A stretch of 64,000 bases of DNA, from NCBI GenBank assembly GCA_951406725.2, contig OX597820.1:20894001-20958000 (forward strand). The letters run 5' to 3'. Within the stretch, counting starts at the first letter, position 1. Every line of letters starts with the position of its first letter. Shown piece after piece: positions 6,902 through 45,783 of this stretch. The notes beneath the pieces are model-generated. The model was given only the letters and a program-made list of their open reading frames with translations. It was not told where the DNA came from and made no database searches. Source of the stretch: Octopus vulgaris (lineage: Eukaryota). Position numbers and translations under genes: made by a program.

Positions 6902-7205
6902 CAATTGCAGCGTGGAAGGTGTTTATAAGCCATTTAAGAAACACACAAAAACCGTTAGATTCACTTCAACATATAAATTTTATTCGTCAAAATCTCAGAG
7001 ATGCAGCACGGAGTTTTGTCAGTGAACAGGTCGTGGTCTCAAAGCAATGAAAATATTTTGACAAATTAAATTTGAATATTGAAGTGAATCTAACAGGTTT
7101 TGGTGTGTTTCTTAAATGGCTTATAAACACCTTCCACACTGCAATTGTTTTCGTTCCAGCACACGATCTCAGATCAGGTCACTTGCTATGCAAGTGCATC
7201 TCCAT
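6900..7205. mobile_element. Penelope-like non-autonomous inverted-repeat element (G3:C8 hammerhead family)
   Basis: Arms at about 6900-6990 and 7055-7148 are reverse complements; the element sits between (TA)n/(CA)n tracts. Same family as 38857-39175. Confidence 0.7.
7015..7065 (+). ncRNA. Second copy of the G3:C8 minimal hammerhead (stem II partly decayed)
   Basis: tttgtca GTGAACA g gtcgt-ggtctcaaa-gcaat GAAA atat TT tgacaaa. Confidence 0.6.
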
Positions 7206-7206
7206 A

Positions 7207-7240
<34 letters not shown>

Positions 7241-7427
7241 GTCATGCAGAGTGATAAAATTCATAAAATCAATAAATCATCATGCTTTTATTATGAATCT
7301 GTATATTTCAGGTTTAACCATTTTGATATCAGCCTGTCTAGGACCACCTTTACTCCTATCACATTGGCTCCCTGTTTTGAAGTGTTCTAAATTAAAAGCA
7401 CCCATGAAAATTTCATGTTAATTTGTT

Positions 7428-7656
7428 TTAACCCTTTGGTGTTTAAGTCGGCCATATCCGGCCCAAATATCCTACATGTTTTTACATTCAAACTGGCCAT
7501 ATTTAGCCTCTCACACCTAACCTACATTGACGTTCTAAGAATAAACTATCATACCATTGAAACTTCAAAGCTATAAGATAACGTATGATTAATTCAAAAC
7601 AATTTGAGTGAAAAAGTATTACATTTAACAGAGTAATCTGAACACTAAAGGGTTAA
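7428..7656 (+). mobile_element. piggyBac-type MITE, second family
   Basis: TTAAccctttggtg...cactaaagggTTAA. Related to 63742-63971 and to a fragment at about 3510-3715 (-). Confidence 0.72.
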
Positions 7657-7735
7657 ATGTCAGCTGAATAAGGACAAATTATTCTACTCAATTTTTCATT
7701 ATTTTAAAAATTCATCAAAACAAAGGCAGTGTATT

Positions 7736-7949
7736 CTTTTCTACTCTAGGCACAAGGCCTGAAATTATGGGGGAGGGGGGGCAGTCGATTAGATCGATCC
7801 CAGTATGCAACTGGTACTTATTCATCAACCTCGAAAGGATGAAAGGCAAAGTCGACCTCAGTGGAATTTGAACTCAGAACATAACAGTAGACGAAATACC
7901 GCTAAGCATTTTGCCTGGTGTGCTAATGTTTCTGCCATCTTGCTGCCTT
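7736..7949 (-). mobile_element. SINE family C (Meta-domain-like core) with a 12-bp TSD
   Basis: Core gtcgactttgcctttcatcctttcg.ggt; TSD aggcagtgtatt on both sides. Other copies at about 8110-8305, 16250-16478, 43400-44390, 45200-45705, 49495-50850 and 54840-55910. Confidence 0.8.
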
Positions 7950-8831
7950 AGGCAGTGTATTTCAACAGAAACACGTAACAGAAGGCTTAATCTTTCCATC
8001 TCTAAGATTATCTATGCAGAGGATAACACTAATATGCTAAATGGTGCTTCCAATCTTTTAAGCCTTTATTTTGGCGGGAAAATAATTTTTCCAACTTTTA
8101 TCTTAAATAATTGCTCCAAATTTTGGCACAAGGCCAGCAAGTTCAGGAGAGAGGTTGACTCCAGTGCTCAACTGGTACTTATTTTATCGATCCTGAAAGG
8201 ATGAAATGCAAAGTCAACCTTGGTGGAATTTGAACTCAGAGCATAAAAATGGATGAAATGCCACTAAGCATTTTGTGGCAAAGATTCTGCCAGCTCACCA
8301 CCCTTCTTATCTTAAATAATAATAAAAAGAAACTTGCGGTTTTTTTTTGTTCTTTTACTTGTTTAAATCATTGAACTGTGGCTATCTTGAAGAACTGCCT
8401 TGAAGGGTTTGATGAAACATATTAATCCTAGTTTTTATTTTAAATCTGGAACTTATTACATCAATCTCTTTTTGCAAACTACTATATTATGGGAACATAA
8501 GACAAACACTAAGAAATACACACACACACATTGGTGGGCTTCCACACAATTTCCATAAACCAAATTCATTCACAAGGCATTAAAAGACACTTGCCCACGG
8601 TGCCACACAGTGAGACTGAACCTAAAATCACCAACTTCTTAACCATACAGCTACACCAGTTTATATAAACTTCCTCTATATTTGAGAATTTTATAAATAT
8701 TACTCTATGTAAACCATTATCAAGTTTTAGCCTTTATGTGAAGTAAGAATAAAGAGGTAAGTGTTTGGTAAACTACAGGTATTGAAGAATATGACATTAA
8801 ATTGAGCAGAATAAACAGATTAGTTCACAAA

Positions 8832-9234
8832 TCTCTCTATATATAAAGCTGAAGTTGTCTGTGTGTGGCAGGTTTGGTAGCCTTCAACTAACACTATCTC
8901 CTCCAAGACCCTGCAGTGCAAGTTGACCAAAATTGAGAGTATGATAGAAGAAGGCTTGCTCTTCCTTCCGTAAAAGAAAAAATTCAAATCAGACCATGTT
9001 AACACCAAAAATTATTTACATCAAAAAGGTGCTTTTTTTCTATGAAAATCCCTATTTTTTACGATTTTTTTTACTGCTGTGTCAGCAATTTTTGGTGTAT
9101 TTCAACCAGAAGAATGTTCACTTAAAGAGAATAACAAGCTACATAATGTAAAATTTTTATTTTCAAAAATTCCAATTCTATAGGGTTGAAAAGAAAACAA
9201 GCAAAGCATGAGCAATGCTGGGCTATAGTGCTTG
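8832..9234 (+). mobile_element. Non-autonomous Helitron (decayed 3' end)
   Basis: Starts A|TCTCTCTATATATAAAG; ends gagcaatgctggg...CTTG|T. Confidence 0.62.
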
Positions 9235-9665
9235 TATATTTATACAAAGAAAAGCTGAAAGAATTAGTGTTAGGTTTAATAATACAATTAACAAAGAATT
9301 TTAATAATTCTATTGTGAATCAATACATAACAGCTTTATAAATAATCTCCAAATCTTTACTTGGGTTCAATTAATTAACCATAGTATGAATAATCTCCAA
9401 GAAGGATAATCCCTCTAAATTTGAAAAACACTACCCTATGTTTCTCTGTTATTATTACATCTAATATGGTTGTAGAAATAATTATGGTTCAATGTCCACT
9501 ACAATACTTTGAACATTTTCATTTTTTGAACTCATAAACCACTAGGAAAGGCCCTGGACAACAAAATCCACAGAAGTTTTTTTTTTTATATTTCTCACAT
9601 GCAAAACATAATGTTGACCATTTACTAGAGGTGAACACTCTGGAGGAAAATATATTATTACTCAC

Positions 9666-9680
9666 AAAAACCAGATCATT
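9666..9680 (-). CDS. Candidate 15-nt microexon (NDLVF), phase 0/0
   Basis: gtgatgcatttttggccatgttttAG|AATGATCTGGTTTTT|GTGAGT. Frame-preserving between exons G and H. Confidence 0.5.
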
Positions 9681-9830
9681 CTAAAACATGGCCAAAAATG
9701 CATCACAAAGGCCAGCTACGTTTTCTTCTATAGAGCTAACAGAATCTTTAAAACTCTAACTTGTACAATGCTTTACAAAATCTACAACAAAACTTTGGAA
9801 AAATTATACATATGTATGTATACATATATA

Positions 9831-9895
<65 letters not shown>

Positions 9896-11257
9896 ATGCA
9901 CATATATATAATGCATCATGACACTGACCAGATTATAGGATGTAGTTATATATCACTGGTCACAATGCGCTTCACATTGTTTTAGTCTTTGAATGATGCC
10001 ATCCAACTGGTTAGGTGAGCAGACCAACATCTCTCCTGATTGGAATTGGAAGACTATTCCATCACAGAGTTACCTATTTACAGTGGACTGAAGCAACGTA
10101 AAATGCACAAGATGGTACCTAGCCCAGGAATTGAACCCACAACCTAACAATCATGTGTGCAACACTCTAACCTCTAGGACATATGCCTTTATATACATAC
10201 ATATACATATATATATATATATATATATGAGAAAAATAATTGCCTGTATCAGTTTGATCAAAGGAAATAACTGTGTAACAATGCAATGACAACTAAAAGA
10301 ACTGATGTATAAGGGAAGCTAGATATAAAGTAAGGAATAAAGCCAGATTTGAAATGTTGTTGCTAACATGCTGAAGAGCTCAGATATTAACGTTTAATCA
10401 TAAACATGAAGCATAAACAGAAAGGATGGAAAGGTTTATGACTGTCCATAACATTTAAAATGAAATCATGCTTGGTTTTAAGTAATTTTAAAACCCTTAT
10501 TAAGTTGCAATTAATGGCATTTGCACATACATTAAATCACAGGATCTTGGATGCTGGTGAAAATACATAGTGTTTTGATAGTAGTGAACAAGTGTGTGTG
10601 TGTGTGTGTTTCCTGATGTTAACAAATATGAACTACAAATGCTTGCTTTCATTAATAGTAACAACATTAGAGTTTCTCGAGTCAGTGAGGGGGTCTCTAC
10701 ATAGTCACTCAGCTTGTTAGAAATAACAGCCAAATATCCCTCAGATCAGACCTTTTCATCTTCAGTTTTAGATAATGTTAAAAGATTGAATGTATGTATG
10801 TATGCAGCCCTAAACAAAGGGAACTGAAGAGTCTTGGCACCCGGACTCCCATGACAGGAAGGGTCCTGGCTTGATGATGAATGTTAAAAATATGGATGAT
10901 CATAGCTGAAATGATCAAAAGTTCATTTAATAAGGATTCACCTTGAACTAAGCAATAACAACAACAGTGATATAATACAGTGTATTTTTGACTGAATTTT
11001 CTCTAAAGTAAGAGTAATGTACGTTTGAAATATACAAAAGCTTTTATATCCTGAATATAATATATATATATATATATACACATATACATATATATGTGTG
11101 TATGTGTGGTAAGTAGCTTGCTTACCAACCACATGGTCCCGGGTTCAGTCCCACTGCATGGCACCTTGGGCAAGTGTCTTCTACTATAGTCTCGGGCTGA
11201 CCAAAGCCTTGTGAGTGGATTTGGTAGACAGACAGAAACCAGAAGAAGCCCGTCGTA

Positions 11258-11305
<48 letters not shown>

Positions 11306-11315
11306 TATATGTATG

Positions 11316-11351
<36 letters not shown>

Positions 11352-12348
11352 CATATATATATTAAAAAATTAAAGATACTAATTCTGACTTTTTGAAACA
11401 TTGAAAACCACTATCAATGTTTGAAAATGAAATATTAGTAACATCTAGTAATATTTTAACAACTAGTAACATTTTAAACACTGTAATATATGTATCTGTA
11501 TTATGAACATTGAAGTGAATTCATTTCATTAGAATTAAGGAAAACTGTTATTGTTAAAGTTTACATGCTTTAGTTTTCAGGTCAAGATCCATATAACAAG
11601 CAACAAATAGCTAGTTAATTATGTTATTTCATCTATCATTCCAAACACGATGTATCTTTTATAACTTTGGGTCAATAAATGCAGGGTTCAATCCAGAACG
11701 GTTATACTTCTTGCCACTCTTTCAAATTAATTACTTTCTTTCTAATTAATGCAGAAAACAGAAACATGCACACATTCATAATAGTGAATGTGTTAAGGAG
11801 ATTATTATTATTATTTTTTTTTTTTTTTTGGAGCTCACCTAATTTAATCTGTTTATGACTTCAAACACTGAAAGAAAAGAGTAATCCCTTAACAATATAC
11901 AATTGTAGAGATTTGGGGGCAAAAATATAGGCCTACAAGGGATAGATCCTTCTCTGAGCTTTAGTGAATACTAAGAATGCATCAACTCAAAAGTTGACAG
12001 CACCCAAAAATAAATTCTCTAGATCATGATGAGATAAATGATTCTAATATAACAAAACAAGAGAACATTTTTTTATATACAAAATAAAATTGAATTTTCT
12101 TAGAACTATTAAAATAAAAACCTTTATATATGATACAAAAAACAGAAATATTGAAAAAATATATTTAAAATGCAGAAGCAAAGCCTAAAATTATTATATA
12201 AAGAATTCCTGTATTAAAAGTATTAGAAAAGTATTTCATTAAATATATAAGTTGTTAAGTGCAAAAAATTTTCAAAAAGCCATAATTTTCTAAAAAAAAA
12301 AAATTCACTCCTGATGAGTGTTTATTTGTATCATAAATGTATATATAC

Positions 12349-12400
12349 CCGCCTTGCTTCAGCTTCATCTTTATCATCTTGTAGTTTACGATTAATGTTT
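12349..12400 (-). CDS. CRACR2A: CRACR2A-like exon G (52 nt, phase 2/0): NINRKLQDDKDEAEARR
   Basis: Acceptor ttttttatttacag and donor GTATAT. Matches the recalled 'RNKHLRDERD'. Confidence 0.85.
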
Positions 12401-13089
12401 CTGTAAATAAAAAAAAAGGAAAATTGGCTTTTAGATCATTTCTTGTAAAAATATCAATATTACATTTAATAATTTAATCTATCAGCTCCATTAGTGTTAC
12501 TTTATTTTTAATGCTAAATTAAGATTAATTTGTAGTGTTTATTGAATTGTATCGAAGTCCTAGCGTTAAAATATTAATAACAAAAAAAGAGTATTTTGTG
12601 TGACACATGTTGACGAGTGTCCTTTGCTATCACCTGGAGTCAACCAAATCCTAGCAAATGAATTTGGTAGTTGAAAATTGAATGAAGCCTGTTGCATGTA
12701 TATGTATGTATATATACACATACATGTATGTGTGTGAGTGTATATATATATCATCATCATCGTTTAACATCCGCTTTCCATGTTGGCATGGGTTGGACGA
12801 TTTGACTGAGGACTGGTGAACCAGATGGCTGCACCAGGCTCCAATCTTGATCTGGCAGAGTTTCTACAGCTGGATGCCCTTTCTAACGCCAACCACTCCA
12901 AGAATGTAGTGGGTGCTTTTATGTGCCACCAGTACGAGGGCCAGTCAGGTGGTACAGGCAACGGCCATGAAAAAATCGTGATTTATTACGTGTCACCTGC
13001 ACGCCGGCACAAGTGCCAGTAAGGCGATGTTGGTAACATTTACGCTCGAATGGTGCTTTTTATGTGCCACCGGCACGAACGCCAGGTAG

Positions 13090-13129
<40 letters not shown>

Positions 13130-13271
13130 TGTGCGTGTATATATATATATATATACTAGAGTAAGCACATTAACGTGAAAGAAGGTGGGAAAAAATAGTA
13201 CTCAAATATCGTAGGTAGAGTAATATGCTTTATTATTAAAGCTGCAAAAACATGACAAAAATATCACAAAA

Positions 13272-13313
13272 AACTGCTACTCAGAGTTTTATGTTCCCGT
13301 TCATCAGGAAGTT
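13272..13313 (-). ncRNA. Decayed hammerhead in a Penelope-like inverted element (about 13155-13350)
   Basis: aacttc CUGAUGA acg-ggaa-cat AAAA ctc-t-gag UA gcagtt. An inverted remnant ccgatga..gaaactct lies at about 13325-13350. Confidence 0.45.
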
Positions 13314-13394
13314 GTGATAGCTCACAACTGACCGATGAATGTGAAACTCTATAAATGAACTTTGGAAGTGCTGAAAGTGTTAGTATTTCACAGA

Positions 13395-13655
13395 CAAGAA
13401 AGTAAATTTTGAATACAGTATAAGTGTGAAAATAGCAGAGAAAGATTGGGTATTTACCCTTAGAAGATGGAAAAAAGTTGCCAGCAGGCAGCTACAGGAA
13501 TCGAACCCTGCAACCGACAGATATAGGCTGAGTGTTGTAACCATTAACTCCCTGTAGCCACCTACTGGCAACTTTTTTTTCCATCTTCTAAGGGTAAATA
13601 CTTGATCTTTCTCTGCTGTTTTCACAGCCATATTGTGTTCAAAATCTACTATCTT
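13395..13655. mobile_element. Palindromic element with a tRNA-like sequence at its centre
   Basis: About 100-bp inverted arms around a minus-strand tRNA-like stretch (tggttacaacactcagcc...gggttcgattcc). Confidence 0.55.
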
Positions 13656-14624
13656 ATCCTTAATAGACACACACACACACACACACACACAAATACACAC
13701 ATACAGTACATAAGGTTCTTTTGTAAACAAATATCACTGTCATACAAGCAGTGTCCTTTTGTTTGCAACCTTCTGTGCCTTCATGTCTGGGAATGGGAAA
13801 ATATCACCTTGCTAGGAAACAGGTGAGGGCTGGGGAGAAGAATGGCATCACCAGCAAGATAGGGTTGGAGAGGAGACACCTGTCTAGAAGTATATATGAG
13901 AAAAGATGGAAGGATGTGGTAAGGAAGTTGGGAGTGAGTGTCCCTACTTAATCTACCACGTGGAAAAAAAAATAGGATGTAGAAAAAATGTAAGGGAAAT
14001 CAAAATTTTTGATCATATAAATCATCTATTTTTAACTTAATATATTTCGTTTTTGGATTTGGTTTGCAAGAGTCAAAACTATTGAAAAGGTTGCAAGATG
14101 CAACGAAAATTTTAGGACAATAAAAATAAGAAAAAAGTGGAAATTTTACCGGTGAGTATATTACATAATAAGGCACAAAAAGAAAGTGACTCTCCCCAGA
14201 CACAACAGAATAATTTAATATATTTTTGTGTAAAAAAACCAAACTGAAAAAACTCGCTGAGTATGTTTTTATTAATGTTTTGTATTGTCCTGTTCTGTCC
14301 TTCTATATTAAATCTTATGATCATGATAAAGAAATCTCTCTACCAGTCGAAAACTGCCTCAACAAATTCAGTCTGACTCATGGAAAAGTGGACATAAAAA
14401 TGATTTGAGCATATGGTCAAGATATCAACATTATATTATTTCCAGTATCAAGAACGTTTAATTTGCACACTTAAGCTTTGTTGTGCTTTTTGATTTGGAA
14501 TATTACGGTTGTTTAAACAATTCTGACTAGCATTTCAAAATAAGCTACAAATGCTGTTTTTATCTTTCTTTAAAGCAATTTCTTGTTGTAGTTAAAATAT
14601 ATATTAATTTAACATTTACTATAC

Positions 14625-14696
14625 CTGAGATGATCCAATTGTTTGACTAGACTTTCTCTTTCTATTGCTATTCCTTCAGTTAGCTTCAATGCTATT
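14625..14696 (-). CDS. CRACR2A: CRACR2A-like exon F (72 nt, phase 2/2): IALKLTEGIAIERESLVKQLDHL(R)
   Basis: Acceptor tttctttttaatacag and donor CAG|GTATAG. Matches the recalled 'TESLQREKAGLLKQLDFLR'. Confidence 0.88.
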
Positions 14697-14952
14697 CTGT
14701 ATTAAAAAGAAAAACATATATATATAGTTACGATATTTCCATCATCAAAGTTTTAAAATGTCATTTTACATTTTGCATAGAGTAGAGCAATGTGGAGAAT
14801 TAAGCTTAAAATCTGTAAAAATCACTGTATTAGTATAAAGTGTTATTGAAACTTCTTAAATCATTAAAATAAAGAAACAAAAATTAAAACACTGCAGCTT
14901 ATTGTACACTTGAAACTTGTTTAAAATAATTACTATACATGACTTGGATATG

Positions 14953-14993
14953 GTACTGAAGAAGGAGCAAGAATTCCTGAAATATGGATATAC
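14953..14993 (+). ncRNA. Minimal hammerhead-like motif (decayed helix III)
   Basis: gta CUGAAGA agga-gcaagaat-tcct GAAA tatgga UA tac. Confidence 0.5.
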
Positions 14994-16661
14994 ACTCATT
15001 ACCTATCTATAGATGCAGATGTCGTTGTGTAGTAAGAAGCTTGCTTCCCAACCACATGGTTTCAGGTTCAGTTCCACAGTGTGGTACATTGGAAAAGTGT
15101 CTTCTACCTTAGCTTCAAGCCAACCAAAGCCTTGTCAGTGGATTTGGTAGACAAAAACTGAAGGAAGCCTGTCATCTATATGCATAGGTGTGATGTGCGT
15201 GTGTGTGTGTGTGTGAGTGTCTTCATGTCTGTGTTTGTCCCCCACCACCACTTGGCAACTGGTGTTGGTGTGTTTACATCCCCATAACTTAGCAGTTCAG
15301 CAAGAGACCAAAAGAATAAGTACCAGGCTTAACAAAAAAAAAAAAATGTAAATAATGGGGTTTATTCCCTAAGGTTAAATGGAATCAAGATGGCAATCTT
15401 CATAAGAGAAGCTCTTCACCAAAAAGTTGCAACCAGTAAGTCAAAATTGCTAGCTGTCCAAAGAACTGAACAGTTGACAATCAATAAAATTATTTGATTT
15501 CAGAAAGGAGGACGGATTTGCCCTTGAAGTCTCAAGAGGAGCTAGATAAAGTACTTTTCACTTACTATTCTGTTGGTAAAAATTTGTCATAAGAAGCAAA
15601 TTGCACCTGTTAGTTTTTTTTACTGGCATCAAAGAAATTCTTCTGCCCAGCGTCAATACAACCTATGCTGCATTTAATCTCCCTTTTAACTTAGGGACAA
15701 ATGAAAACGCTACATACAATATTACTAAGGAGCATACAATATTACTAAGGTCCATACATGTGTCTGAGTTGTATGCGTGTGTATGTTTACTCGTGCTTTA
15801 AATTGTGTTGCTTTGTGTCATCAGTGTATCTTAGTAGTTAGTTTAATAAAGATTATGAAAGTAAGCACAAAAGAGAAATAAGCACAGAAGTCTATATAAC
15901 TGACCAAGGTGGAGCTCCAGCTTGGTGGGTTTTAGCCCACATGACAAGGTTCTAGCTCAAAAATACTTTATCCATTGATCTGTTTTTCATTTCTGTATTT
16001 CATTTATTTTGCATTGCTTTGGCCTTTTCACAAGTTTTAATCTAATATGCACTACTCCAGTGCATATTTCTCTCTTGCCCTTATTTTAATAATCTTTATC
16101 AAACTCACTATTATGAAATACTGTTGGCAGACTGACTTTGAACTGAGTTTGGTATATTTGTGTATTTTGTTTAATTTTGGGAAACATAAAATGGGATTTA
16201 ACCATCAGATTATCATATTTCTCTTAATATATACTGTTCTAATATCAAAGACAGCGAGCTGGCAGAAATGTTAGCACACCGGGCGAAATGCTTAGTGGTA
16301 TTTCGTCTGTCTTTACATTCTGAGCTCAAATTCTGCCGAGGTCAACTTTGCCTTTCATCCTTTCGGGGTCGATTAAATAAGTACCAGTTGTGTACTGGGG
16401 TCGATCTAATCAACTTAATCCCTTTGTCTGTCCTTGTTTGTCCCCTCTATGTTTAGCCCCTTGTGGGCAATAAAGAAATATATACTGCTCAAATATCAAT
16501 TAATCTTAAAATAATGACGAATTTAGTAAAATAACCTTGTTTTCTTATTAAGCTTGCATTTGGAAAGTAAATTGACATGGCACAGTCTAATGACAAAAAG
16601 AAATATCTATAGAAACATCAATAAATAGCTTAACACAATAGTCACTATACACACTAATATA

Positions 16662-17253
16662 CAGTCATGGCAAAAAGTTTGGAACATATGTCCAAAAATT
16701 AGAATTTTTATATTAACCCTTTCATTACTGTATCTATTTTGAGATGCTCTGTGTTTCTTTCAATTACTTTAAATATAACAAAGAATTTAGTAAAATAACT
16801 TAGTTATCATTCAGCTAGTGTTAGGAACATAAATTTTGACTAAGGTTTGGTGGAAGATTTTAATTCAAAACTTATGAAAACAAGACATTTGTACTCAGAG
16901 CCAGAGCTGGTTTCAGCCGGGTTGGTAACGAAAGTGTTAAGAATTGTTTCTCTGTTATATATTTTAACCCATTTGTTACCATATTTCTGTTGAGACACTC
17001 TGTGTTTCTTTCAATTAATTTTAAATATAACGAATAATTTAGTAAAATAACTTAGTTATCATTCAACTAGTGTTGGGAACAAAACTTATGAAAACAAAAC
17101 ATTTGTACTCGGAGCCAGAGCCAGTTTCAGCTGGGTTGGTAACGAAAGGGTTAAATGCCTAAATTTATACATTGCATATATTTGAATTGAACTGTACTTC
17201 GGCATAACAATTTTGATTTATAAAAAGATGTTCCAAATTTTTGGCCACAACTG
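16662..17253. mobile_element. Tc1-like MITE containing a nested piggyBac-MITE dimer
   Basis: TA|cagtcatggcaaaaagtttggaacat ... atgttccaaatttttggccacaactg|TA. Confidence 0.65.
16713..17154 (-). mobile_element. piggyBac-type MITE dimer
   Basis: TTAA-CCCT...AGGG-TTAA units separated by a fixed ~23-bp spacer. Confidence 0.75.
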
Positions 17254-17331
17254 TATGGATGTAACATTAAGTCTTTGAGAAGAAATGGAATAAATTTATA
17301 TGTTATGAAAATAAAGAATTGGTAAACTTAC

Positions 17332-18658: not shown

Positions 18659-18717
<59 letters not shown>

Positions 18718-20122: not shown

Positions 20123-20125
<3 letters not shown>

Positions 20126-35587: not shown

Positions 35588-36014
35588 CTGCAATTTGAAA
35601 GTGAAACAAGAACATGTAAAAGAACAGAAAATATAGGTTGTACTGATGAACTGTCTTAGGAGTATTCTAATTATTTCTATGATACATTCATTTGTGTGTG
35701 TGTGTGTGTTTGTGTGTGTATGTATATACATACATGTATGTATGTATGTATGTATGTATATGTGCATATATATATGTATATATGTCTAGTCACAGAAACC
35801 TAGTGCAGGTTTCTGCCCGGCTGGCTCTTGTGAAACCATCCCACCCATGCTAGCAGGGAAGGTGGACATTAAACAATGATGATGATGATGCATGAATGTG
35901 TGATAAATATATATATATATATAAAGTTAATCCAAACATGAAAACACAACAACGTGAGGACGTGGAACAAGTATAGTGTCATTAGACGCTCAGGAAAGAA
36001 AAGAAAGAAGGAGG

Positions 36015-36049
36015 ATTTAACGTTTCGAGCGGAGCTCTTCATCAGAAAC
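36015..36049 (-). ncRNA. Minimal type-I hammerhead ribozyme, canonical C3:G8 core
   Basis: gttt CUGAUGA a gagc-tcc-gctc GAAA cg UU aaat, with palindromic AACGUU. A mutated inverted copy lies at 36700-36734 (+). Confidence 0.72.
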
Positions 36050-36121
36050 ATAGGAAAAGGAAAGATCCAAGGAAGGGAAGACGGAAAAAAAAAAAATCGC
36101 CAACAATACACACACGGTCAC

Positions 36122-36176
<55 letters not shown>

Positions 36177-36236
36177 CTACTTATTTATCTAAAATCACCA
36201 CAATTGTTTTGACACATTGTTACTCTCTTATGCCAA

Positions 36237-36330
36237 TAAGCCACTCCTATGCCTACAAGCCTCTCCTACTCTTATAAGCCACTCCTATGCCTATAAGCCA
36301 CTCCTATGCCTATAAACCACTCCTATGCCT
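36237..36330. repeat. 19-bp minisatellite x5 (taagccactcctatgccta)
   Basis: Direct repeats; the unit is the reverse complement of the 5' end of the major SINE. Confidence 0.8.
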
Positions 36331-36839
36331 CATTGAATACTGTGTTGCCTGTATCGATATTTTATGATTTGTAACAAAAATGTTAGCTGCAGCTATTTGG
36401 TTCTTCTTGAAGACCAATTTTGATATATTCTCTCTGTCTGTTTCTGCTTATTTTGGCATTTGTGTGGCATGCCATTACACTTTTCTGACTTATTCTTTGT
36501 AGGTCTAGTACTTATTCTATCGGTCTTTTTTGCCCAACTGCTAAGCTTCAGGGTCATAAACACACCAACATCAGTTGTCAAGTGACGGTGGGGGGACAAG
36601 CACAGACACACAAATACATACATACATATGTGACCGTGTGTGTATCGTTCGCGATTTTTTTCCTCCATCTTCCCTTCCTTGGACCTTTCCTTTTTCTATG
36701 TTTCTGATGAAGACCTCCACTCGAAACGTTAAATCCTCCTTCTTTCTTTCCTTTCCTGAGCTTCCAATAACACTATACTTGTTCCACGTCCTTGCATGGT
36801 TGTGTTTTCTATTTTCATGTTTGGATTAACTATATATAT

Positions 36840-37286
36840 GTGCCGGTGGCACATAAAAAGCACTATCCGAACGTGGCCGATGCCAGCGCCGCCCCGACTG
36901 GCTTCTGTGCCGGTGACACATAAAAAGCACCATCCGAACGTGGCCGATGCCAGCGCCGCTCCAACTGGCTTCTATGCCGGTGGCACATAAAGAGCACCAT
37001 CCGAACGTTGCCAGCGCCGCCTTGGCTGGCTTCCGTGCCGCTGGCACGTTAAAAGCTCCAACCAATCGTGGCCGATGCCAGACCCCCCCCTGGCACCTGT
37101 GCAGGTGGCACGTAAAAAGCACCCACTACACTCGCGGAGTGGTTGGCGTTAGGAAGGGCATCCAGCCGTAGAAACTCTGCTAGATCAGACTGGAGCCTGG
37201 AGCAGCCCCTGGCTTGCCAGACCCCGGTCGAACCGTCCAACCCATGCTAGTGTGGAAAACGGATGTTAAACGATGATGATGATGAT
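36840..37286 (+). mobile_element. RTE-tailed SINE-like element (family B) with five 5' tandem modules and a (GAT)n tail
   Basis: Core ggttggcgttaggaagggcatccagc. Other copies at about 812-1070(-), 12751-13090(-), 26340-26750, 28181-28538, 30017-30292, 32286-32620(-), 46330-46890(-, two), 57170-57420(-), 59160-59410, 62520-62958 and 63060-63311. Confidence 0.82.
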
Positions 37287-37509
37287 ATACACTAACATAC
37301 ACATATATATATATATACATACATAAACAACGGGCTTCATTCAGTTTTCATCTACCAAATCCACTCACAAAGCTTTAGTCAGCCCAAGACTATAGTAGAA
37401 GACACTTGCCCAAGGTGCCACACAGTGGGACTGAACCCAGAACCATGTAGTTGGGAATCAAGCTTCTTACCACACAGTCACGCCTATAAATATTGTTCAT
37501 ATATATATA

Positions 37510-37985
37510 TCTCTTATTATAAAAGGCAGATTTTATCTGCCTCTCTTTGGGAGTTATACAAATCTACAATATAGGATTTCTTCAATTACAATTTACCTTG
37601 CATTTTTAAGAGTACAATGCATCGCGTCATGCCAGGTCCAGTTTTTAAAATTTAAACTCCAATTAAGCAAAATTTACAGAAAACTCACATTCTGGTGTGT
37701 GTGTCAAATGCTTTTCTTAGTCTGGTTTACAGCACACGCAAACGCACACACACAGTGGGCAACGAATAAAATGAAAGTAATTGACTTACTGTAGTGAGTG
37801 ATTCTTTCACTCTGCCTCCCACTTCCTCTTTCAACACATAGACACGCAAATATATAAATAAAATTGTAAGCTAACGTGCGTGTGAGTGGGTGTGTGTGGG
37901 TGTGCGCGTGTGTGTGTGTGTGAGGGTGCGTGTGTGTCTGTGCGTGTGCGTGAGTGTGTGACAGGAAAGTTTTTTACGACGAATA
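37510..37985 (+). mobile_element. Probable Helitron 5' portion
   Basis: Starts A|TCTCTTATTATAAAAG; no 3' CTAG end found. Confidence 0.4.
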
Positions 37986-38009
37986 TAACACCTATATCCA
38001 AGTAGCAGA

Positions 38010-38490
38010 AAGATAAGACAGTAAGGTGTGATTTGAGGGAGATTTGGCTGCTATTTCTACCATGTCTAGCTGCCATGTAGGGGTCTCCCTCATAGGCTCA
38101 TACATACATATATACATAGATAAGACAGTAAGGTGTGATTTGGGGGAAATTTGGCTGCTATTTCTACCAGGTCTAGCTGCCATGTAGGGGTCTCCCTCAT
38201 AGGCTCATACATACATATATACATAGATAAGACAGTAAGGTGTGATTTTGGGGAAATTTGGCTGCTATTTCTACCAGGTCTAGCTGCCATGTAGGGGTCT
38301 CCCTCATAGGCTCATACATACATATATACATAGATAAGACAGTAAGGTGTGATTTGGGGGAAATTTGGCTGCTATTTTTACCAGGTCTAGCTACCATGTA
38401 GAGGTCCCCCTCATTGGCTCATATATATATACATACATAAGACAGTAAGGTGTGATTTGAGGGAGATTTGGCTGCTGTTTCTACCAGGTC
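38010..38490. repeat. Tandem repeat, 107-bp unit, about 4.5 copies
   Basis: agataagacagtaaggtgtgatttg... recurs every 107 bp; four near-identical ORFs at the same spacing. Confidence 0.9.
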
Positions 38491-38856
38491 TGTTAGGCCT
38501 TCTCATGTAAACTCAAGCTTTCTCATGCCTTGAACATAAGACCAAAGCAGAGAATGTATTCTTTTATTCTTCTGCTTTTTCCAGCCATTGGTCTGTGGCC
38601 ATGCTGGGGCAATGCCTTGAAGAATTGTAGTTTAATGAATCAACTCGTTTTATTTTTGTAAGCATTGTACTTATTCTATCTGTTTCCTTTGTCAAACCAC
38701 TAGGTGACAGGGATGTAAACAAACCAACATTCGTTGTCAAGCAGTGGTGGAGGACAATCACAAGCACAGACACGCACACACACACACACATACATGCATA
38801 CACATATACACACATACATACATACATACATATATATATATGTGTGTATATATATA

Positions 38857-39175
38857 TTGCAGCGTGGAAGGTGTTTGTAAGCCATTTAAGAAACACACAA
38901 AAACCGTTACATTCACTTCAACATTTAAATTTAATTTGCCAAAATATTTTCGTCGCTTTGAGACCGCGACCTGTTCACTGACAAAAATATCGTGCTAACA
39001 GGTTGCGGTCTCAAAGCGATGAAAATATTTTGACAAATTAAATTTAAATGTTGAAGTGAATCTAACGGTTTTTGTGTGTTTCTTAAATGGCTTATAAACA
39101 CCTTCAACGCTGCAACTGTTTTCGTTCCAGCACACAATCTCAGATCAAGTCACTTGCTATGCAAGTACATCTCTG
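38857..39175. mobile_element. Penelope-like inverted-repeat element (G3:C8 hammerhead family)
   Basis: About 125-bp near-perfect inverted arms centred near 38990, flanked by TA repeats. Confidence 0.72.
38935..38985 (-). ncRNA. Minimal type-I hammerhead ribozyme, G3:C8 core variant
   Basis: tttgtca GUGAACA g gtcgc-ggtctcaaa-gcgac GAAA auau UU tggcaaa. 7-bp stem I, 5-bp stem II, palindromic AAUAUU helix III. Confidence 0.72.
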
Positions 39176-39216
<41 letters not shown>

Positions 39217-39279
39217 TGGTAAAAACAGTAAGATAACAAAAGAAAGAAAGAGACCTCAATATTATGTAAATAGAGGAAA

Positions 39280-39672
39280 TCTTTATATATAAAAGTGAGG
39301 TTGTGTGTCTGTCTCCTACGATTTAGATTCCTAACTACTCCCACATTTTGCGGTGCAGTTTAACCAAAACCGGGTATCTTATAGTCGTGATTCATATCGA
39401 GACCGTCTGGGTATTAGCGCGTCTACGATGAGTCTACGATTTAAAAAAAAATTTACCATCAATTTTTCCCATTTTTAATCCATTTTTGACATATATAAGG
39501 GAAGTAACTCTCTAAAATTTATTATTAAATCTCAGAACGTAAAAAGCTACAGTAACACCCCTCCCCCTTTGTGGTTAGCCATATTGAGATGGCTATTATA
39601 CTTTACATCTCTAAAAATGCTTATATAATTATTTCCCTTACAAACCCGAGCAACGCCGGGCGATACTGCTAG
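39280..39672 (+). mobile_element. Non-autonomous Helitron
   Basis: Starts A|TCTTTATATATAAAAG. Ends with hairpin cccgagcaacgccggg then CTAG|T; no TSD. Confidence 0.8.
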
Positions 39673-40331
39673 TATATATATAGTTTTGTCATGTATGTTT
39701 TCATCCCTCATTAGTTCTTATCTACACAAATCTTACTAATTGAAACTTCTAGAATCTCTTCTTTCCTATTGCCTAGCAACTGCAGCAAAAGATGGTAAAA
39801 TTAATCTTGCATGTGTTTCTGACCTTGGCTACCTTTCAAAATAAAAAGAAATATTTTAATTTACTTAGTTCTCGCTTTTCTTTTAAAAGTATTCTAATGA
39901 AAAACCACCAAATTTTAAAAAAATTTTCTATATATTTTTCTTCAATTTAAACCATTTATAATTTTTTTTGCTATTTTGGTTGTATTAAAAAGTAGGATAA
40001 ACAACCAACTGCATTTTATCTGTGTATACACATGGTTTGGCCACCACCATCACCACCTGAATAATAGCTGCAACGATCATTACCACTACAGCCACAACTA
40101 TCCCCAGCACCACCACCACCATCATCAACATCATCATCATCATTAACATCAGTCAGTTTTCAACAGTCTGAGTTAGTTCTTATTTGGAGTCACTGCTCCC
40201 CTAGATGGGTCAGGAGGCACATCTTGTTTGTATGATTCGTTTTTAGCTTGGATTCTGGAGTGGGATGCAGTTCCTGTCACCAAACACTTTGCATTATGTA
40301 CCAGGAGCATTTTACTGAGGTAAAACTTAAG

Positions 40332-40368
<37 letters not shown>

Positions 40369-40431
40369 AGACAGTAGGAGAGGTGGATAAATAGTAGAAG
40401 TGAATGATTGGTGTATGTGTGTGTGAGTGAA

Positions 40432-40480
<49 letters not shown>

Positions 40481-40739
40481 CTATATCTATATATATATAT
40501 ATGTCAAGAGAGATAGAAAGAGGAGAGAAAGAGAGAAAGTGACAGACAAACAGAATGAGCTTCTTTCAATTTCCATCAAGCAAATCCACTCTCAAGGCTT
40601 TGACCAGCTTGATATTATAGTAGAAGATACTTGACCAAGGTGCCACGCAGTGGGACTGAACCTAAAACCATATGGTTGGGTAATTCTTAACCACACAACC
40701 ATGCCTGTGTCTACACACACAGAGAACACAACACACATA

Positions 40740-41656
40740 TGAGGGGGTAAGTCAAAAATTATCACACTTTCATCATAACATATCTTTATTATTATCACAC
40801 TGCTTTCTGTACATGCATGCTTATAGTTGGGACTATTGTGGTCGCATGATCGAAGTTTGAGCCTGATCGCACCGTTTTTCTTTCTGGCTTTACAGTGTAA
40901 GCATGGCTGCTTCACTAGCAATGTGCACCAAAGAACAAAGATCAGTGATCTGAGAGACAGCAATGGTAAACTGGTTCACCATTACCACCTCTCAAGCTTG
41001 TTGAATCTTCTCATCAGTGGTAGAAGTCGACAGGTGTCCTGCTCCCACTTTGCTGACATGGGTGGGTCTTCTCAAGAACTTCATATTGCCAGACATCTCG
41101 ATCTATTGTCATTTCTTCCACGAGGCCCAACATCCCGAGATCAGTCTTTACCACTTCATCCTATACCTTCCTGGGTCCTCCTCTTCCACAGGTGCCATCT
41201 ACTTTCAGTGATTGGCACTTCTTTATGCAGCTGTCCTCATTCATATGCATCACAAGTCCAAACCAACGCAGTCTTCTCTCTTGCATGCTACATTTGATTC
41301 CTCTTATGCTCAGCTTTTCTCTCAATACATTTGTACTTTGTCGTACATGCACACTGATGTACTTTTAAATTTCTCATTCCACTCATACACACTTCTATGC
41401 AGCAGTGCACTGTCCTCGTATTGTGCTAAAAGCTTCCGTTTAATTTCACTACCTGACAAACCTTTGTCCTCCTTTGGTGCACATTGCTAAAGGTGCAGCC
41501 ATGCTTACACTGTAAAACCAGAAAGGAAAATGGCATGGTCAGGCTCCACATGGCCACAATAGTACCAACAACAACACGCATGCGCAGCAGAAGGCAGTGT
41601 AACAATAATAAAGATTTGTTATGGCAAAAGTGCAGATAATTTCTGGCTTAGCCTCG
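40740..41656. mobile_element. mariner foldback made of two 5' ends, interrupted by an RTE fragment
   Basis: TIR gagggggtaagtcaaaaattatc / gataatttctggcttagcctcg|TA, about 190-bp inverted arms, and HTH remnant EIKRKLLAQYEDSALLHRSVYEW.EKFK at about 41362-41452 (-). Confidence 0.7.
41055..41360 (-). mobile_element. RTE LINE reverse-transcriptase C-terminal fragment
   Basis: Peptide LREKL..MQERRLRWFGLVMHMNED..GRGGPRK. Confidence 0.75.
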
Positions 41657-42991
41657 TACATAGAAACAAAAGCTGTAAAGCACTAAAGTCAAACAGGCTT
41701 CAACTTGAAGACAAAAGCAGAGAACTGTGAAACAAAACAAAAAGTTATAAGTGAAATGTTTAAGAGATTTTACATAAGTGTCAAAGAGTAGCATAATAAA
41801 AGCCAGTTGATATCTCAGAGAATTATGCTATTGTAGCTAAGAGGGACTATTGTTGTAGTTGTTGTTGTTGTGTTGTTGTTGTTGTTGTTGCTGTTTATTT
41901 GTAAAGACATAGAAAAGTTATAACTAGAGCTGAACTGGTTTCTTCATGGTGAAAGAATGTAGTTCACCACACCTTATTTCAGTTCTATTGCCATGGTGTC
42001 AAAAACAATTTTATTGCAGAAAATGGAACAGACACACCCACCCACCCACACATATACATATATGTGTGTGTGTGTGTATACACACACACACACACATACA
42101 TATATATATGTATATATACATATATATACACACATACACACACACACACATATATATACACACACACATATATACATATATATATATACATACATATATA
42201 TATATATATAAATTAATAATAGAAGGGTAAAATTTATTAATCAAATTAATTAATTAATCGATTAATTCATAATTTTACCAAGTAGCTTGGTACATTAAAA
42301 TAACCTTTGTAGGTAAAATTATGTGGATACATATATATCTATATCACCATCATCATTGTTTAATGTCTACCTTCCATGCTGGCACAGGTGAGATGGTTTG
42401 ACGAAAGCTGGCCGGGTAGAAGCCTGCATCAGAGTTCTGTAACTGTTTTGGCAGGATTTTTACAGCTGGATGCTCTTCCTAACACCAATCACTCAGTGGA
42501 GTGGACTCAGTAAATTTTACGTGGCACAAGCACAGGTGGGGTCAGTTTTGGCAAGGATTTTACAGCTGGGTCATCAAGTACATGTAACACAAAAAAACAC
42601 ACAAACACCCTTTTGAGAGGGGAGAGGGCATTGGAGGAGGTGGTTCGAAAGATTATAGTGAGGCAGAGAGACAGAAACTGCTATCTTGTTGTAGAGGAGG
42701 TACAAGGTTAACCAGCTGGGAGTGGAGGGAGAGAGAGATCAGCAAAGAAGACAGAAACAGAGAGAGTGGGAGACAGCAGGATAGAGATGGTAGCAAAGTG
42801 CTGGGCATATGCACTGATACAGTGAGACAGGGTTTGGGTTTGGGTGGAACATACAGGTCAGAAGCAAGCAGAGGGCCAAGGGGACAGAAATGGGGAGTGG
42901 GAGGTAAGCATAGAGCATGAAGCAGAAATTTGAGGAAGAGAAGAGATGTAGTGTGGTGGGGGGACACAGCCCTTCTAGAAATCAGTTTTGT

Positions 42992-43352
42992 TGACATGGG
43001 CGGGTCTTCTCAAGAACTTCATATTGCCAAACATCTCGATCCATTGTCATTTTTTCCATGAGGCCCAACATCCTGAGATCGGTCCTTACCACTTCATCCT
43101 ATACCTTCCTGGGTCTTCCTCTTCCACAGGTACCATCAACATTCAGTGATTGGCACTTCTTTATGCAGCTGTCCTCATTCATATACATCACACACCCAAA
43201 CCAACGTAGTCTTCCCTCTTGCATGTTACATTTGATTCCTCTTTTGCCCAGCTTTTCTCTCAATACATTTGTACTTTGTCGTACATGCACACTGATGTTG
43301 CACATCCAACAGAGCATACTACCTTCGTTTCTCTCCAGTCTACGCATGTCTG
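42992..43352 (-). mobile_element. RTE LINE reverse-transcriptase C-terminal fragment (same family as 41055-41360)
   Basis: Peptide MRRLERNEGSMLCWMC..LREKLG..RLRWFGCV..GRGRPRK. Confidence 0.78.
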
Positions 43353-43399
43353 CATTCACACATATGCACATATTTTTTATATGATAACAATAAAAATAA

Positions 43400-44395
43400 T
43401 AATAATCCTTTCTACTATAGGCATGAGGCCTGAAATTTTATGGGAGGGCTTAAGTTGATTTCATTGACCCAAGTGTTCAACTATGGGGGCACATGGCCTA
43501 GTGGTTAGAGCAGCAGACTCGTGGTCGAGGGATTGCAGGTTCGAATCTCAGACCGGGCGATGTGTATGTTTATGAGCGAAACACCTAAGTACAACATGGC
43601 TCCAGCAGAAGGTAATAGCAAACTTCTGCTGACTCTTTCGCCACAACTTTCTCTCACTTTTTCCTCCTGCATCTTGCAGCTCACCTGCGATGGACTGGCA
43701 TCCCATCGAGGTGGGGAACCTATATGCTAAGGAAACCGGAAAACTGGCCCTTATGAGCCAGGCATGGGTCAAGAAGGAACAAACAAGTGTTCAACTGGTA
43801 GATAATTTATCAACCCTGAAAGAACGAAAGACAAAGTCGACCTTGACGAAATTTGAACTCAGAACGTAAAGACGGATAAAATGCTGCTAAGAATTTCGCC
43901 CCGTGTGCTAATGGTTCTGCCAGCTCACTGCCATACAACTACTACTACTACTACTAACAATAATAATCCTTTCTACTAAAGTCACAAGGCCTGAAATTTG
44001 GGGGACGGAGGATAATTGATTACATCAACCCCAAGAGCTTAACTGATACTTATTCTATCAAACCCGAAAGGAAGAAAGGCAGTATCAACCTGGACAGAAT
44101 TTGATCTCAGAACATAAAGAAGGATGAAATGCCACTAAGCATTTTGTCCGGTGTGCTAACGATTCTACCAGCTCACTGCCTTACTAATGATAATAATAAT
44201 TCTTTCTACTATTGGCACAAGGCCTGAAATTTGTGGAGAGGGGGTAAGTTGATCACATTGACCCCAGGTTTTGAATGGTGCTTAATTTATTGACCCTGAG
44301 AGGATGAGAAACAAAGTCGTCTTCGGCGGAATTTGAACTTAGAACGTAGCGGCACACGAAATACTGCTAAGCATTTCGCCCTGTGTGCTAACAAT
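43400..44395 (-). mobile_element. Cluster of three family C SINEs in (AAT)n, one interrupted by another tRNA-SINE (about 43485-43785, +)
   Basis: Repeated family C cores. caagtgttcaact is duplicated around the inserted SINE. Confidence 0.75.
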
Positions 44396-44401
44396 AATAA
44401 C

Positions 44402-44436
<35 letters not shown>

Positions 44437-44499
44437 TAATAATAAATGCCCTGGTACTGCATAAGGGCATTCATTATTATTATTATTATTATAATTATC

Positions 44500-45157
44500 A
44501 TTACTAAGTCTCTCTAAAGGAGATTACGGCAGCGTTACTGGATATTAATAGTTATCGCCATACTAATATGGCAGTCTATAAATAAGACTAAAGCTTTCGC
44601 TGATTAGCTCCAAGAGGCCATCGCCTCTAGCTAGCTATAAGACACACGAACCTGCGTCCATTACAACCTTCGAACAGGGGAGGTCAGCCGCTTCACCTTG
44701 CTAGTCAGACATCTGCAGACATGTTTCAGGGTCGTTGCCCTTTATCAATGCAGCGTAGTCAGAACCAGCAGGTGTCGCTACTGACCGTCTGTTCGAAGAT
44801 TTTATTTACCTAGTTACAGTGGAATACATCCACTTGTTTTCAATAATAGAAATATTAAAATTACTAAGTCTCTCTAAAGGAGATTACGGCAGCGTTACTG
44901 GATATTAATAGTTATCTATCTGGATATTAATAGCTAGCTATAAGACACACGAATCTGCGTCCATTACTACCTTCGAACAGTAATTTTAATATGTCTGACT
45001 AGCAAGGTGAAGCGGCTGACCTCCCCTGTTCGAAGGTTGTAATGGATGCAGGTTCGTGTGTCTTATAGCTAGCTAGAGGCGATGGCCTCTTGGAGCTAAT
45101 CAGCGACAGCTTTAGTCTTATTTATAGACTGCCATATTAGTATGGCGATAACTATTA
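44500..45157 (-). mobile_element. Retrozyme/Penelope-like element: 360-bp monomer, partial tandem copy and inverted arm
   Basis: attactaagtctctctaaagg recurs at 44500 and 44860. Segment 44990-45157 is the reverse complement of about 44545-44712. Embedded in (ATT)n. Confidence 0.75.
44713..44753 (-). ncRNA. Minimal type-I hammerhead ribozyme, U3:A8 core variant
   Basis: ctgca UUGAUAA aggg-caacga-ccct GAAA caug UC tgcag. Stems I and II are perfect, helix III is the palindrome ACAUGU, and the cleavage triplet is GUC. Confidence 0.8.
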
Positions 45158-45163
45158 TTATTA

Positions 45164-45200
<37 letters not shown>

Positions 45201-45436
45201 GGCAACAAGCTGGCAGAAATGTTAGCACGCTGGGCAAAAGGCTTAGCGGTATTTTGTATGTTTTTATGTTCTGAGTTCAAATTCTGTCAAGGTCGACTTG
45301 CCTTTCATCCTTTTGGGGTCAATAGATTAAGTACCAGTTGTGTATTGGGGTTGATCTAATCAACTGGCCCCATCCCAAAAAAATTTCAGGTCTTCTGCCA
45401 AGAGTAGAAAAGATTATTATTATTTTTATTATTATA

Positions 45437-45492
<56 letters not shown>

Positions 45493-45740
45493 GGCAGTGA
45501 GCTGGCAGAATCATTAGCATGCTGAGTGAAATGCTTAGCGGTATTTCATCTGCCGCTACATACTAAGTTCAAATCCCCCCGAGGTCGACTTTGCCTTTCA
45601 TCTTTTCGGGGTCAATGTCATAAGTACCAGTTACACACTGGGGTCAATGTAATCGACTAGCCCCCTTCCCCTAAAAATTTTCAAAGCTTTGTGCCTAGAG
45701 TAGAAATAATAATAATAATAGTTATTATTTTAGTTTGTTT

Positions 45741-45783
45741 GTCAAAGTACTTTTGTCACACATCCTGTGACCTCTTCAGCGAC
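45741..45783 (-). ncRNA. Decayed minimal hammerhead (G12>A)
   Basis: gtcg CUGAAGA g gtcac-aggatgt-gtgac AAAA gtac UU tgac. The inverted partner at about 45826-45858 retains gtgat GAAA. Confidence 0.5.

Follow-up and report, generated by a model that had tools for sequence, protein, structure and literature searches.

The window analysed here, a 64,000-nt stretch of the 2.8-Gb genome of Octopus vulgaris (contig OX597820.1, positions 20,894,001 to 20,958,000) that is ~64% repeat-masked, had been described in a first-pass annotation as holding several unrelated minimal hammerhead ribozymes inside one gene, with two core positions, 3 and 8, that covary as a base pair. The single gene is there: minus-strand EF-hand, coiled-coil and Rab exons span 63579 to 4187, and every hammerhead motif of the window is intronic in this EFCAB4/CRACR2A-like gene, whose exon at 63418-63573 (minus strand) shows 100% identity to EFCAB4B/EFCAB4A/RASEF-like proteins of Octopus vulgaris and O. 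sinensis, the figure for O. bimaculoides being 98%. Five minus-strand motifs (45741, 44713, 38935, 36015, and 13272) are in sense orientation in the host pre-mRNA. Since the three intact sense copies have different helix III palindromes and one is predicted to be sequestered in a hairpin, we infer that cutting of the host pre-mRNA is unlikely.

The eight stretches and their cores lie where they had been reported. CUGANGA cores were found at 36015-36049(-), 18786-18828(+), 14953-14993(+), 45741-45783(-), and 13272-13313(-), a UUGAUAA core at 44713-44753(-), and GUGAACA cores at 38935-38985(-) and 7015-7065(+). The further statement that each copy carries the whole type-I layout stands for three of the eight. 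A strict descriptor, which required GAAA, a UH cleavage site, a minimum of 4 bp in each of stems I and II, a helix III that is palindromic or a hairpin, and Watson-Crick pairing of any kind at 3:8, gave three window matches (44748, 38978, and 36045), one each with U:A, G:C, and C:G, and no window match with a non-Watson-Crick 3:8 combination; in 60 block-wise dinucleotide shuffles of the window, the mean was 0.08 and the maximum 2. The five copies that fail the descriptor are decayed: 18786 has no UH site, 45741 and 13272 have lost GAAA, stem II is broken in 7015, and helix III is broken in 14953. The first-pass annotation had overlooked a U3:A8 motif at 14079-14115(+), an older G3:C8 motif at about 2520-2565(+), and extra copies of two C:G families.

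That such motifs are chance matches, selected by eye from AT-rich, repeat-rich DNA, is a negligible prospect. Three of the seven window matches to a looser descriptor are weak (9631, 52075, and possibly 14956 taken alone), with shuffles giving 0.35, and we treated 9631 and 52075 as chance; moreover, Rfam shows no hammerhead among the best 150 of 216 window matches, nor in 44600-45900, but AT-repeat noise only. The minimal form is not defined by an Rfam match, however. The strict matches lie above all 60 window shuffles and all 8 genome shuffles, and for each of the listed motifs the majority form of the family has the parts that the window copy lacks; these family data already refute the chance reading.

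The eight motifs represent seven multi-copy repeat families, those at 7015 and 38935 being one family, with 389 to 3324 first-look candidates per family. The elements had been called unrelated, and rightly so, as the seven families share no similarity beyond 9-16 nt. The family majorities restore the parts missing from decayed window copies, except for the UH site in the commonest sampled form of the 18786 family. In the 45741 family, helix III is an imperfect palindrome. The perfect one at 45741 occurs in that copy alone, the four commonest classes among 30 family copies including AGAACU (7) and AGAGCU (8). Elsewhere, helix III is the palindrome ACAUGU (37/38 copies) or AAUAUU (35/37), and further families have ACGU, AAUU, ACCGGU, or AUAUGCAUAU. 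Family majorities show the minimal-hammerhead core (N3-UGA-N-N8-A, GAAA, UH, and a paired 3:8), with UH absent in the commonest sampled 18786 subfamily. Stems I and II are present in the families, except that stem II has 2 bp in an A3:U8 family and stem I is weak in part of an autonomous U3:A8 family, both described below.

Positions 3 and 8 were tallied in all aligned copies of ten families, mostly top BLAST hits to the query plus incidental copies, and form a Watson-Crick pair in 301 of 326. The pair is U:A in the 44713 (38/38) and 14079 (7/7) families and G:C in the 7015 family (36/37). It is C:G in the families of 36015 (42/48), 18786 (59/62), 14953 (17/17), 13272 (14/20), and 45741 (21/30), and two families from outside the window have U:A (30/30) and A:U (36/37). 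We also scanned an untargeted genome sample of 67 stretches of 10 kb each (670 kb). There, the looser descriptor, allowing all 16 combinations at 3:8, found 10 Watson-Crick matches vs. 1.05 expected and 5 non-Watson-Crick matches vs. 3.05 expected, and the strict descriptor found 5 paired and 0 unpaired matches, with 0 in 8 shuffles. Neither G:C nor A:U was among the descriptor matches in this sample, in which BLAST detected two core-covering copies of the G:C family (~8,000 genome-wide, a very rough figure) and none of the A:U family. A family-level permutation value of 5e-7 (16 families) is illustrative only, the families being related and partly chosen by their paired cores. The tally and the Watson-Crick excess in the untargeted sample bear out, at the level of families, the claim that the 3:8 covariation is structural. 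Judged from sequence, it is wider than first noticed, comprising C:G, U:A, and G:C plus the A:U of a Penelope-like element (PLE) family outside the window. A search restricted to CUGANGA would, as had been warned, be incomplete, missing three of the four core types.

Further U3:A8 and C3:G8 families with other palindromes (ACCGGU, ACGCGU, AGCGCU, and ACUCGAGU) were seen at loci L013, L007, L016, L025, L204, L255, L011, L221, and L339. Position 4 also varies: it is C (CCGANGA) in a young PLE subfamily (L244 and L330-L345, about 500 nt past the open reading frame [ORF]), in 8/20 copies of the 13272 family, and in 15/48 of the 36015 family. The CUGAUGA of 13272 may be the CpG-decay product of a C4 master.

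The comparison that speaks most directly to function is between two G3:C8 families. The young element of 215 nt has fixed ends, with some 20-40 nt between the 5' end and the core, and is mostly solo; inverted arms were found in 9/29 loci. Among 30 loci, target duplications of 10-13 bp were present in 6, (TA)n sites in 6, 7-mers in 2, and none in 16. In an older sister family, represented in the window by a decayed copy, 30 decayed copies were compared, of which 23 retain G3 and 25 retain C8. In a scripted, CpG-aware count, the old and young majority forms differ at 0/33 core, stem, and bulge positions vs. 26/137 positions downstream (Fisher p 0.003), so that cores and stems are conserved beyond their flanks in this family pair, the only one in which structure and flank were compared. 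The sisters do differ at N7, at three of eight loop II positions, and in helix III, where AAUU and AAUAUU are both palindromes; change is thus apparently confined to positions where the hammerhead tolerates it. This comparison of one family pair points to selection on the fold and is our best evidence for function. When a further G3:C8 family, with ACGU as helix III, was sought by its pattern, 9 matches came up against 28 in the reversed control, none of them real, and among the best 80 of 120 loci in a metagenome scan with the G3:C8 motif, none resembles the family beyond the pattern.

The second window copy of this family, at 38935, is different. Taken by itself, its motif fits the strict descriptor, but it is carried by a 2.2-kb DNA element that we take, from its features, to be Helentron/Helitron-like. 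Among 30 loci of this element, the 5' end was present in 29, the 3' end in 26, and a head-to-tail arrangement in 8. Because the 38935 motif is cargo of a DNA element and sits in a predicted hairpin, its near-identical copies are uninformative on ribozyme action. Besides the PLE fold-back, the Helentron-like element has picked up a piece of a short interspersed element (SINE) and a 107-bp tandem, and near 39280-39305 it contains a second end-like motif; all 30 loci examined have this in common, at about 96-98% identity.

The U3:A8 family of 44713 has 1436 first-look candidates, the top 40 at 98-100% identity. Copies of its 360-nt unit often exceed one unit, often have an inverted arm, end in AT microsatellites, and include partial tandems. 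Contigs of four runs, presumed to be RNA, cover the unit, and one joint in them jumps back 357 nt. Since this joint also exists as tandem DNA, nothing follows from it on expression or circles.

Among the C3:G8 families, that of 36015 showed no inverted arm in 24 loci. The 18786 family is of a composite type: 32/39 tRNA-like heads are followed by the motif-bearing tail, and both A and B boxes, 45-46 nt apart, occur in 10 of 22 full heads according to general box patterns. ARAGORN called no tRNA in 12 sources, and Rfam gave no tRNA match for the head. In the commonest sampled form, which has 30 copies where the intact type has about 15, three cleavage-site bases are missing, and the window motif, in the tail of the element, likewise has no UH site. 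The family is a candidate SINE moved by a PLE. It may number tens of thousands of copies (13 tail matches in 670 kb), and at L190:1700-3000 (G000:C2 near 2,735,000) about six 215-nt copies of the UH-less tail follow one another head to tail, joined by (AAT)n linkers and lacking the tRNA-like head. The features of the window are collected in Table 1.

Table 1. Host gene and hammerhead-bearing repeats of the window
Positions	Strand	Feature	Details	Basis
4187..63579	-	Host gene, EFCAB4/CRACR2A-like	EF-hand, coiled-coil, Rab	Protein mapping, exon identity
63415-63579, 35497-35583, 20789-20890, 20193-20264, 17331-17450	-	Host coding exons		Mapped Octopus proteins
14627-14695, 12349-12402, 6403-6441, 4187-4291	-	Host coding exons (continued)	6403-6441 in one isoform	Mapped Octopus proteins
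2507..2709	+	Decayed copy of older G3:C8 sister family	GUGACCA as core at 2526, AAUU as helix III; overlooked by first-pass annotation	71% identity
6900..7208	+	215-nt G3:C8 element (about 6997-7208)	5' arm inverted (6900-6993); lies in (TA)n; stem II of motif 7015-7065 decayed	
13159..13318	-	Old C3:G8 family	Helix III ACUCUGAGU; N4 = C in 8/20 copies; GAAA lost in window copy	
14079..14115	+	U3:A8 motif UUGAAAA, eighth family	Helix III AAUU; 7/7 copies U:A; overlooked by first-pass annotation	Descriptor
14944..15006	+	Old C3:G8 family fragment	Helix III AUAUGCAUAU in the family; decayed in the window	
18332..18890	+	Composite of a tRNA-like head containing A- and B-box (18586-18660), then (AAT)n and a PLE-type tail (18738-18890)	Inverted arm covers head and tail	
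33818..34100	-	tRNA-headed family, older copy	Keeps UH; 5' limit approximate	
35925..36123	-	PLE-type 3' end, C3:G8 family	Intact motif at 36015-36049, with ACGU as helix III	Strict descriptor, family alignment
36628..36835	+	36015 family, second copy	Decayed	
37509..39673	-	Presumed Helentron/Helitron-like non-autonomous element, young, 2.2 kb	Carries 38935 motif as cargo	Hairpin ends, head-to-tail copies, internal 107-bp tandem
38856..39180	-	Fold-back copy of 215-nt G3:C8 element		
38935..38985	-	G3:C8 motif GUGAACA	Helix III AAUAUU, U17; fits descriptor when taken by itself; predicted buried in long fold-back hairpin	Strict descriptor
44505..45161	-	Non-autonomous PLE-like insertion	ORF-less unit of 360 nt; ends redundant over 63 nt; 171-nt arm inverted on the 5' side; 3' end lies in (TAA)n	
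44713..44753	-	U3:A8 motif UUGAUAA	Intact minimal type-I, helix III ACAUGU, C17; sense in pre-mRNA	Strict descriptor
45722..45855	-	Old C3:G8 family	Short inverted arm; G12 lost in window copy	

As to the rest of the window, 13272 and 14953 were ruled out as coding exons, both being repeat copies outside the mapped exons. A Pfam search of 40 candidate exons gave nothing at threshold, and the frame at 48170-48385, used as a query, found no homologue. A very abundant SINE-like family has at least 16 window copies (e.g., 3236-3469, 22729-22935, 53852-54085, 57702-58094, and 61968-62201), and a repeat with 67-bp tandem units lies at 28207-28362 and 36839-37123. Outside the window, a 221-aa open frame with a ubiquitin-like start adjoins a repeat copy (L097:2524-3186).

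No ORF combining reverse transcriptase (RT) and GIY-YIG domains lies in the window. For the genome, 148 of 6136 candidates from a GIY-YIG search were listed as matches, and many of them lie in open frames of 781 aa. Full copies of an autonomous PLE (L240, L242, and L250) measure 4.7 kb and contain a 781-aa ORF with RVT_1 and GIY-YIG; their terminal repeats are 99.3-100% identical, and each holds UUGAUAA...GAAA CAUG U. By its CxxC linker, the element would be of Neptune type, a clade name that follows the description in the covered part of 10.1101/2021.04.23.441226. This young PLE has two overlapping ORFs (479 and 781 aa; L250:1268-4968, L240, and L242), and GT donor-like and pyrimidine-AG acceptor-like sites flank the 5' half of the motif in its pseudo-long terminal repeat (pLTR; L250:5600-5860), which may be compared with the Drosophila virilis Penelope intron. 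A second PLE family, with variable 5' truncation, has AUGAAUA...GAAA CCGG U C located 267 nt past its GIY-YIG ORF, and A3:U8 in 36/37 copies. Reading this A3:U8 motif as a hammerhead would draw on its position, homology, palindrome, and C17. In a tree of 12 natural ORF ends, which does not settle the order inside the A:U/U:A clade and has six rows without an assigned core, the A:U family and two U:A families form a clade (100/99), and a C:G family stands apart. U:A would seem to mark one clade of Neptune-type PLEs, with A:U lying within it.

We consider it probable, at roughly 0.8, that these are minimal type-I hammerhead motifs, located 100-250 bases ahead of fixed 3' ends, that come from PLEs and their short non-autonomous derivatives. 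The tie to Penelope elements suggested by the first-pass annotation holds in so far as autonomous RT and GIY-YIG elements of the genome bear the same kind of motif. A PLE origin of the window families seems likely from their insertion traits, namely partial tandems, an inverted 5' arm, a fixed 3' end with an optional tail, and an AT-rich or microsatellite target. Partial tandems, inverted arms, optional tails, and microsatellite targets are the shapes of endonuclease-bearing (EN+) PLEs in the covered text of 10.1101/2021.04.23.441226. The non-autonomous elements that had been proposed are also present, at least three families qualifying. The 781-aa PLE and the 44713 motif have a common core and the ACAUGU palindrome; their stems are unrelated, and there is no wider similarity.

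Several observations weigh against this explanation. Autonomous elements sharing termini with the window families were not found among 63 PLE loci, the matches being separate insertions, and four PLE terminal repeats compared with the window families gave no match at E 0.05, with 148 of the 6136 GIY-YIG candidates listed. No parent element was identified for the G3:C8 family, and in several PLE families the motif is degenerate or not recognisable. Single motifs mostly fold weakly, with z values vs. shuffles between 0.56 and -2.48, and the A3:U8 motif, with its 2-bp stem II, folds no better than shuffles (z -0.02). In self-dimer folding of three motifs, pairing through helix III with an intact stem II was obtained only for 44713, the other two favouring other dimers. 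Finally, 3:8 is not Watson-Crick in 25 of the 326 copies, 16 of which show C-to-T or G-to-A changes expected from decay, and sampling by top BLAST hits inflates the uniformity of most family counts.

The first-pass annotation had gone further in calling the system ribozyme-driven. That would be a retrozyme model, in which self-cleavage frees unit-length RNAs that circularise and are reverse-transcribed, and it finds some backing in the ORF-less 360-nt U3:A8 unit, whose copies exceed one unit and whose size is that of mussel retrozymes (PMC7229834; each source is cited for the part of its text that was covered), in the tandem array of 215-nt units, and in the apparent selection on the G3:C8 fold. 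The insertions tell a different story. Among 140 incidental copies, 58 extend beyond the query start, 46 start upstream of the cut site, 30 start downstream, and only 6 have 5' ends within 5 nt of it; 104/140 hence span the cut site, without a 5'-end peak there, from which it follows that most complementary DNA was made from RNA uncut at that site. UH is absent both from the tandem array sampled and from the most frequent sampled form of the 18786 family, and the G3:C8 copies stand alone, their fixed ends lying upstream of the motif. The UH-less subfamily, the cargo copy in the DNA element, and the lack of a peak together imply that cleavage is not required per insertion. Elsewhere, hammerhead mutants leave insertion of an anole PLE unchanged (PMC11167929), and 8/9 Xenopus dimers were uncleaved (bioRxiv 10.64898/2026.07.22.740005). 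The label is not supported, and we regard the model as improbable.

Alternatively, the G3:C8 and A3:U8 motifs might be dead relics, i.e., double changes fixed by drift in masters no longer needing cleavage and kept as protein-binding or promoter folds. Cleavage is dispensable in Naiad PLEs (10.1101/2021.04.23.441226, part covered) and in the UH-less subfamily, other families show C4 cores and degenerate motifs, and stem II of A3:U8 is just 2 bp. Nevertheless, drift does not explain paired double changes at 3 and 8, the G3:C8 sisters vary only at N7, in loop II, and in how long helix III is, the palindrome being retained, and an engineered C3G/G8C PLE ribozyme is partly active (PMC11167929). 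We consider relics rather unlikely, without dismissing them.

The origin from PLEs that we favour could work as follows. A PLE protein would bind RNA 3' of the motif and nick AT-rich DNA; reverse transcription would start at an internal site downstream of the motif and run leftwards through it, mostly on uncut RNA. Such copying would yield truncated, inverted, or tandem inserts, each insertion with a whole motif then decaying neutrally, and short derivatives would borrow the PLE protein for insertion. In a few master copies, the fold would be selected as a weak, dimer-dependent, and probably protein-assisted ribozyme, two motifs pairing through the palindromic helix III to process tandem or read-through transcripts, an activity dispensable for any single insertion. 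Over long times, the 3:8 pair may have been swapped between lineages, with all four Watson-Crick forms persisting. Przybilski and Hammann in 2007 reportedly showed that any Watson-Crick 3:8 pair can support cleavage in some ribozymes.

A bolder proposal, which we put forward tentatively and would sooner doubt than assume, is that one animal genome runs hammerheads with all four 3:8 cores, including thousands of G3:C8 copies and an A3:U8 PLE family beyond standard searches, and that the helix III palindrome acts as a pairing code. Solo RNA would be cut only when paired with RNA of the same palindrome, for example that of an autonomous helper, as with the 360-nt U3:A8 element and the 781-aa PLE, which both have ACAUGU. 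If true, nature would have supplied all four versions of the 3:8 pair for comparison, and PLE hammerheads would gain a role that can be tested. In most PLE clades the motifs are retained, although they cut poorly and are unneeded for insertion in vitro. The genome amounts to a natural experiment, with homologous motifs, four core pairs, several palindromes, a spreading subfamily without the cleavage site, and a young autonomous element. Should G3:C8 and A3:U8 cleave, ribozyme censuses using CUGANGA or YUGANRA give too low a number of hammerheads in animals.

There is nothing unusual in U3:A8, in intronic PLE tails, or in non-autonomous derivatives. Minimal hammerheads in PLEs, their U3:A8 form, and retrozymes as non-autonomous PLEs are already published, and the system as such is not new. 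What would be new, if they cleave, are G3:C8 and A3:U8 as natural variants making up whole families in an animal and completing the four pairs in one genome. In the literature searched, we found no octopus hammerhead paper and no natural G3:C8 or A3:U8 hammerhead in animals, although papers or supplements outside it may report such cores; G3-C8 was met there solely as an engineered variant (PMC11167929 among them). In the covered text of PMC3088659, natural compensatory change at the 3:8 pair is documented, with U3-A8 as the sole form reported; compensatory change is common to both cases, and Octopus adds forms beyond U3-A8.

The closest likeness is to the minimal hammerheads in the pLTRs of metazoan PLEs, which include U3-A8 variants, palindromic helices III, and low dimer activity (PMC4209133, as far as covered). 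The Octopus motifs share with them the type-I layout, a short stem I, an extra base between 9 and 10.1, a palindromic helix III, many solo family copies, low predicted dimer activity, and the U3-A8 variant, described there in Schistosoma and Saccoglossus. Whereas the alignment in the covered part of that paper has CUGANGA and UUGANAA only and no cephalopod, Octopus has G3:C8 and A3:U8 family majorities. Non-LTR (long terminal repeat) retrozymes, proposed as non-autonomous PLE derivatives (PMC7229834; bioRxiv 10.64898/2026.07.22.740005), resemble the Octopus elements in being short ORF-less hammerhead units of 200-400 nt, found as monomers and tandems. The 2020 retrozymes (PMC7229834) are canonical fast hammerheads with proven circles, while the Octopus motifs are minimal and mostly solo or fold-back; cephalopods are absent from the sampling of the retrozyme surveys in the text covered. 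Schistosoma SINE-like elements have a promoter followed by a hammerhead (PMC6765202, covered part), and the 18586-18890 family similarly joins a small-RNA-type head to a hammerhead body. It differs in that its tail shows PLE insertion features (fold-back and a variable 3' tail) and that its commonest sampled subfamily is without the cleavage-site bases.

The Poseidon PLE of Anolis carolinensis offers the mechanistic parallel. According to the covered text of PMC11167929, its reverse transcription starts internally with uncut RNA as the main template, no reads end at the cut site, its ribozyme cuts only with the protein present, C3G/G8C is a partial rescue, and hammerhead mutants are without effect on insertion in vitro. 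Octopus is alike in having the motif upstream of a fixed 3' end, an optional tail, AT-rich targets, an uncut RNA template, and no peak of ends at the cut site. Its autonomous elements differ in being Neptune-type with two overlapping ORFs, and the C3G/G8C combination that was engineered in Poseidon is natural in Octopus.

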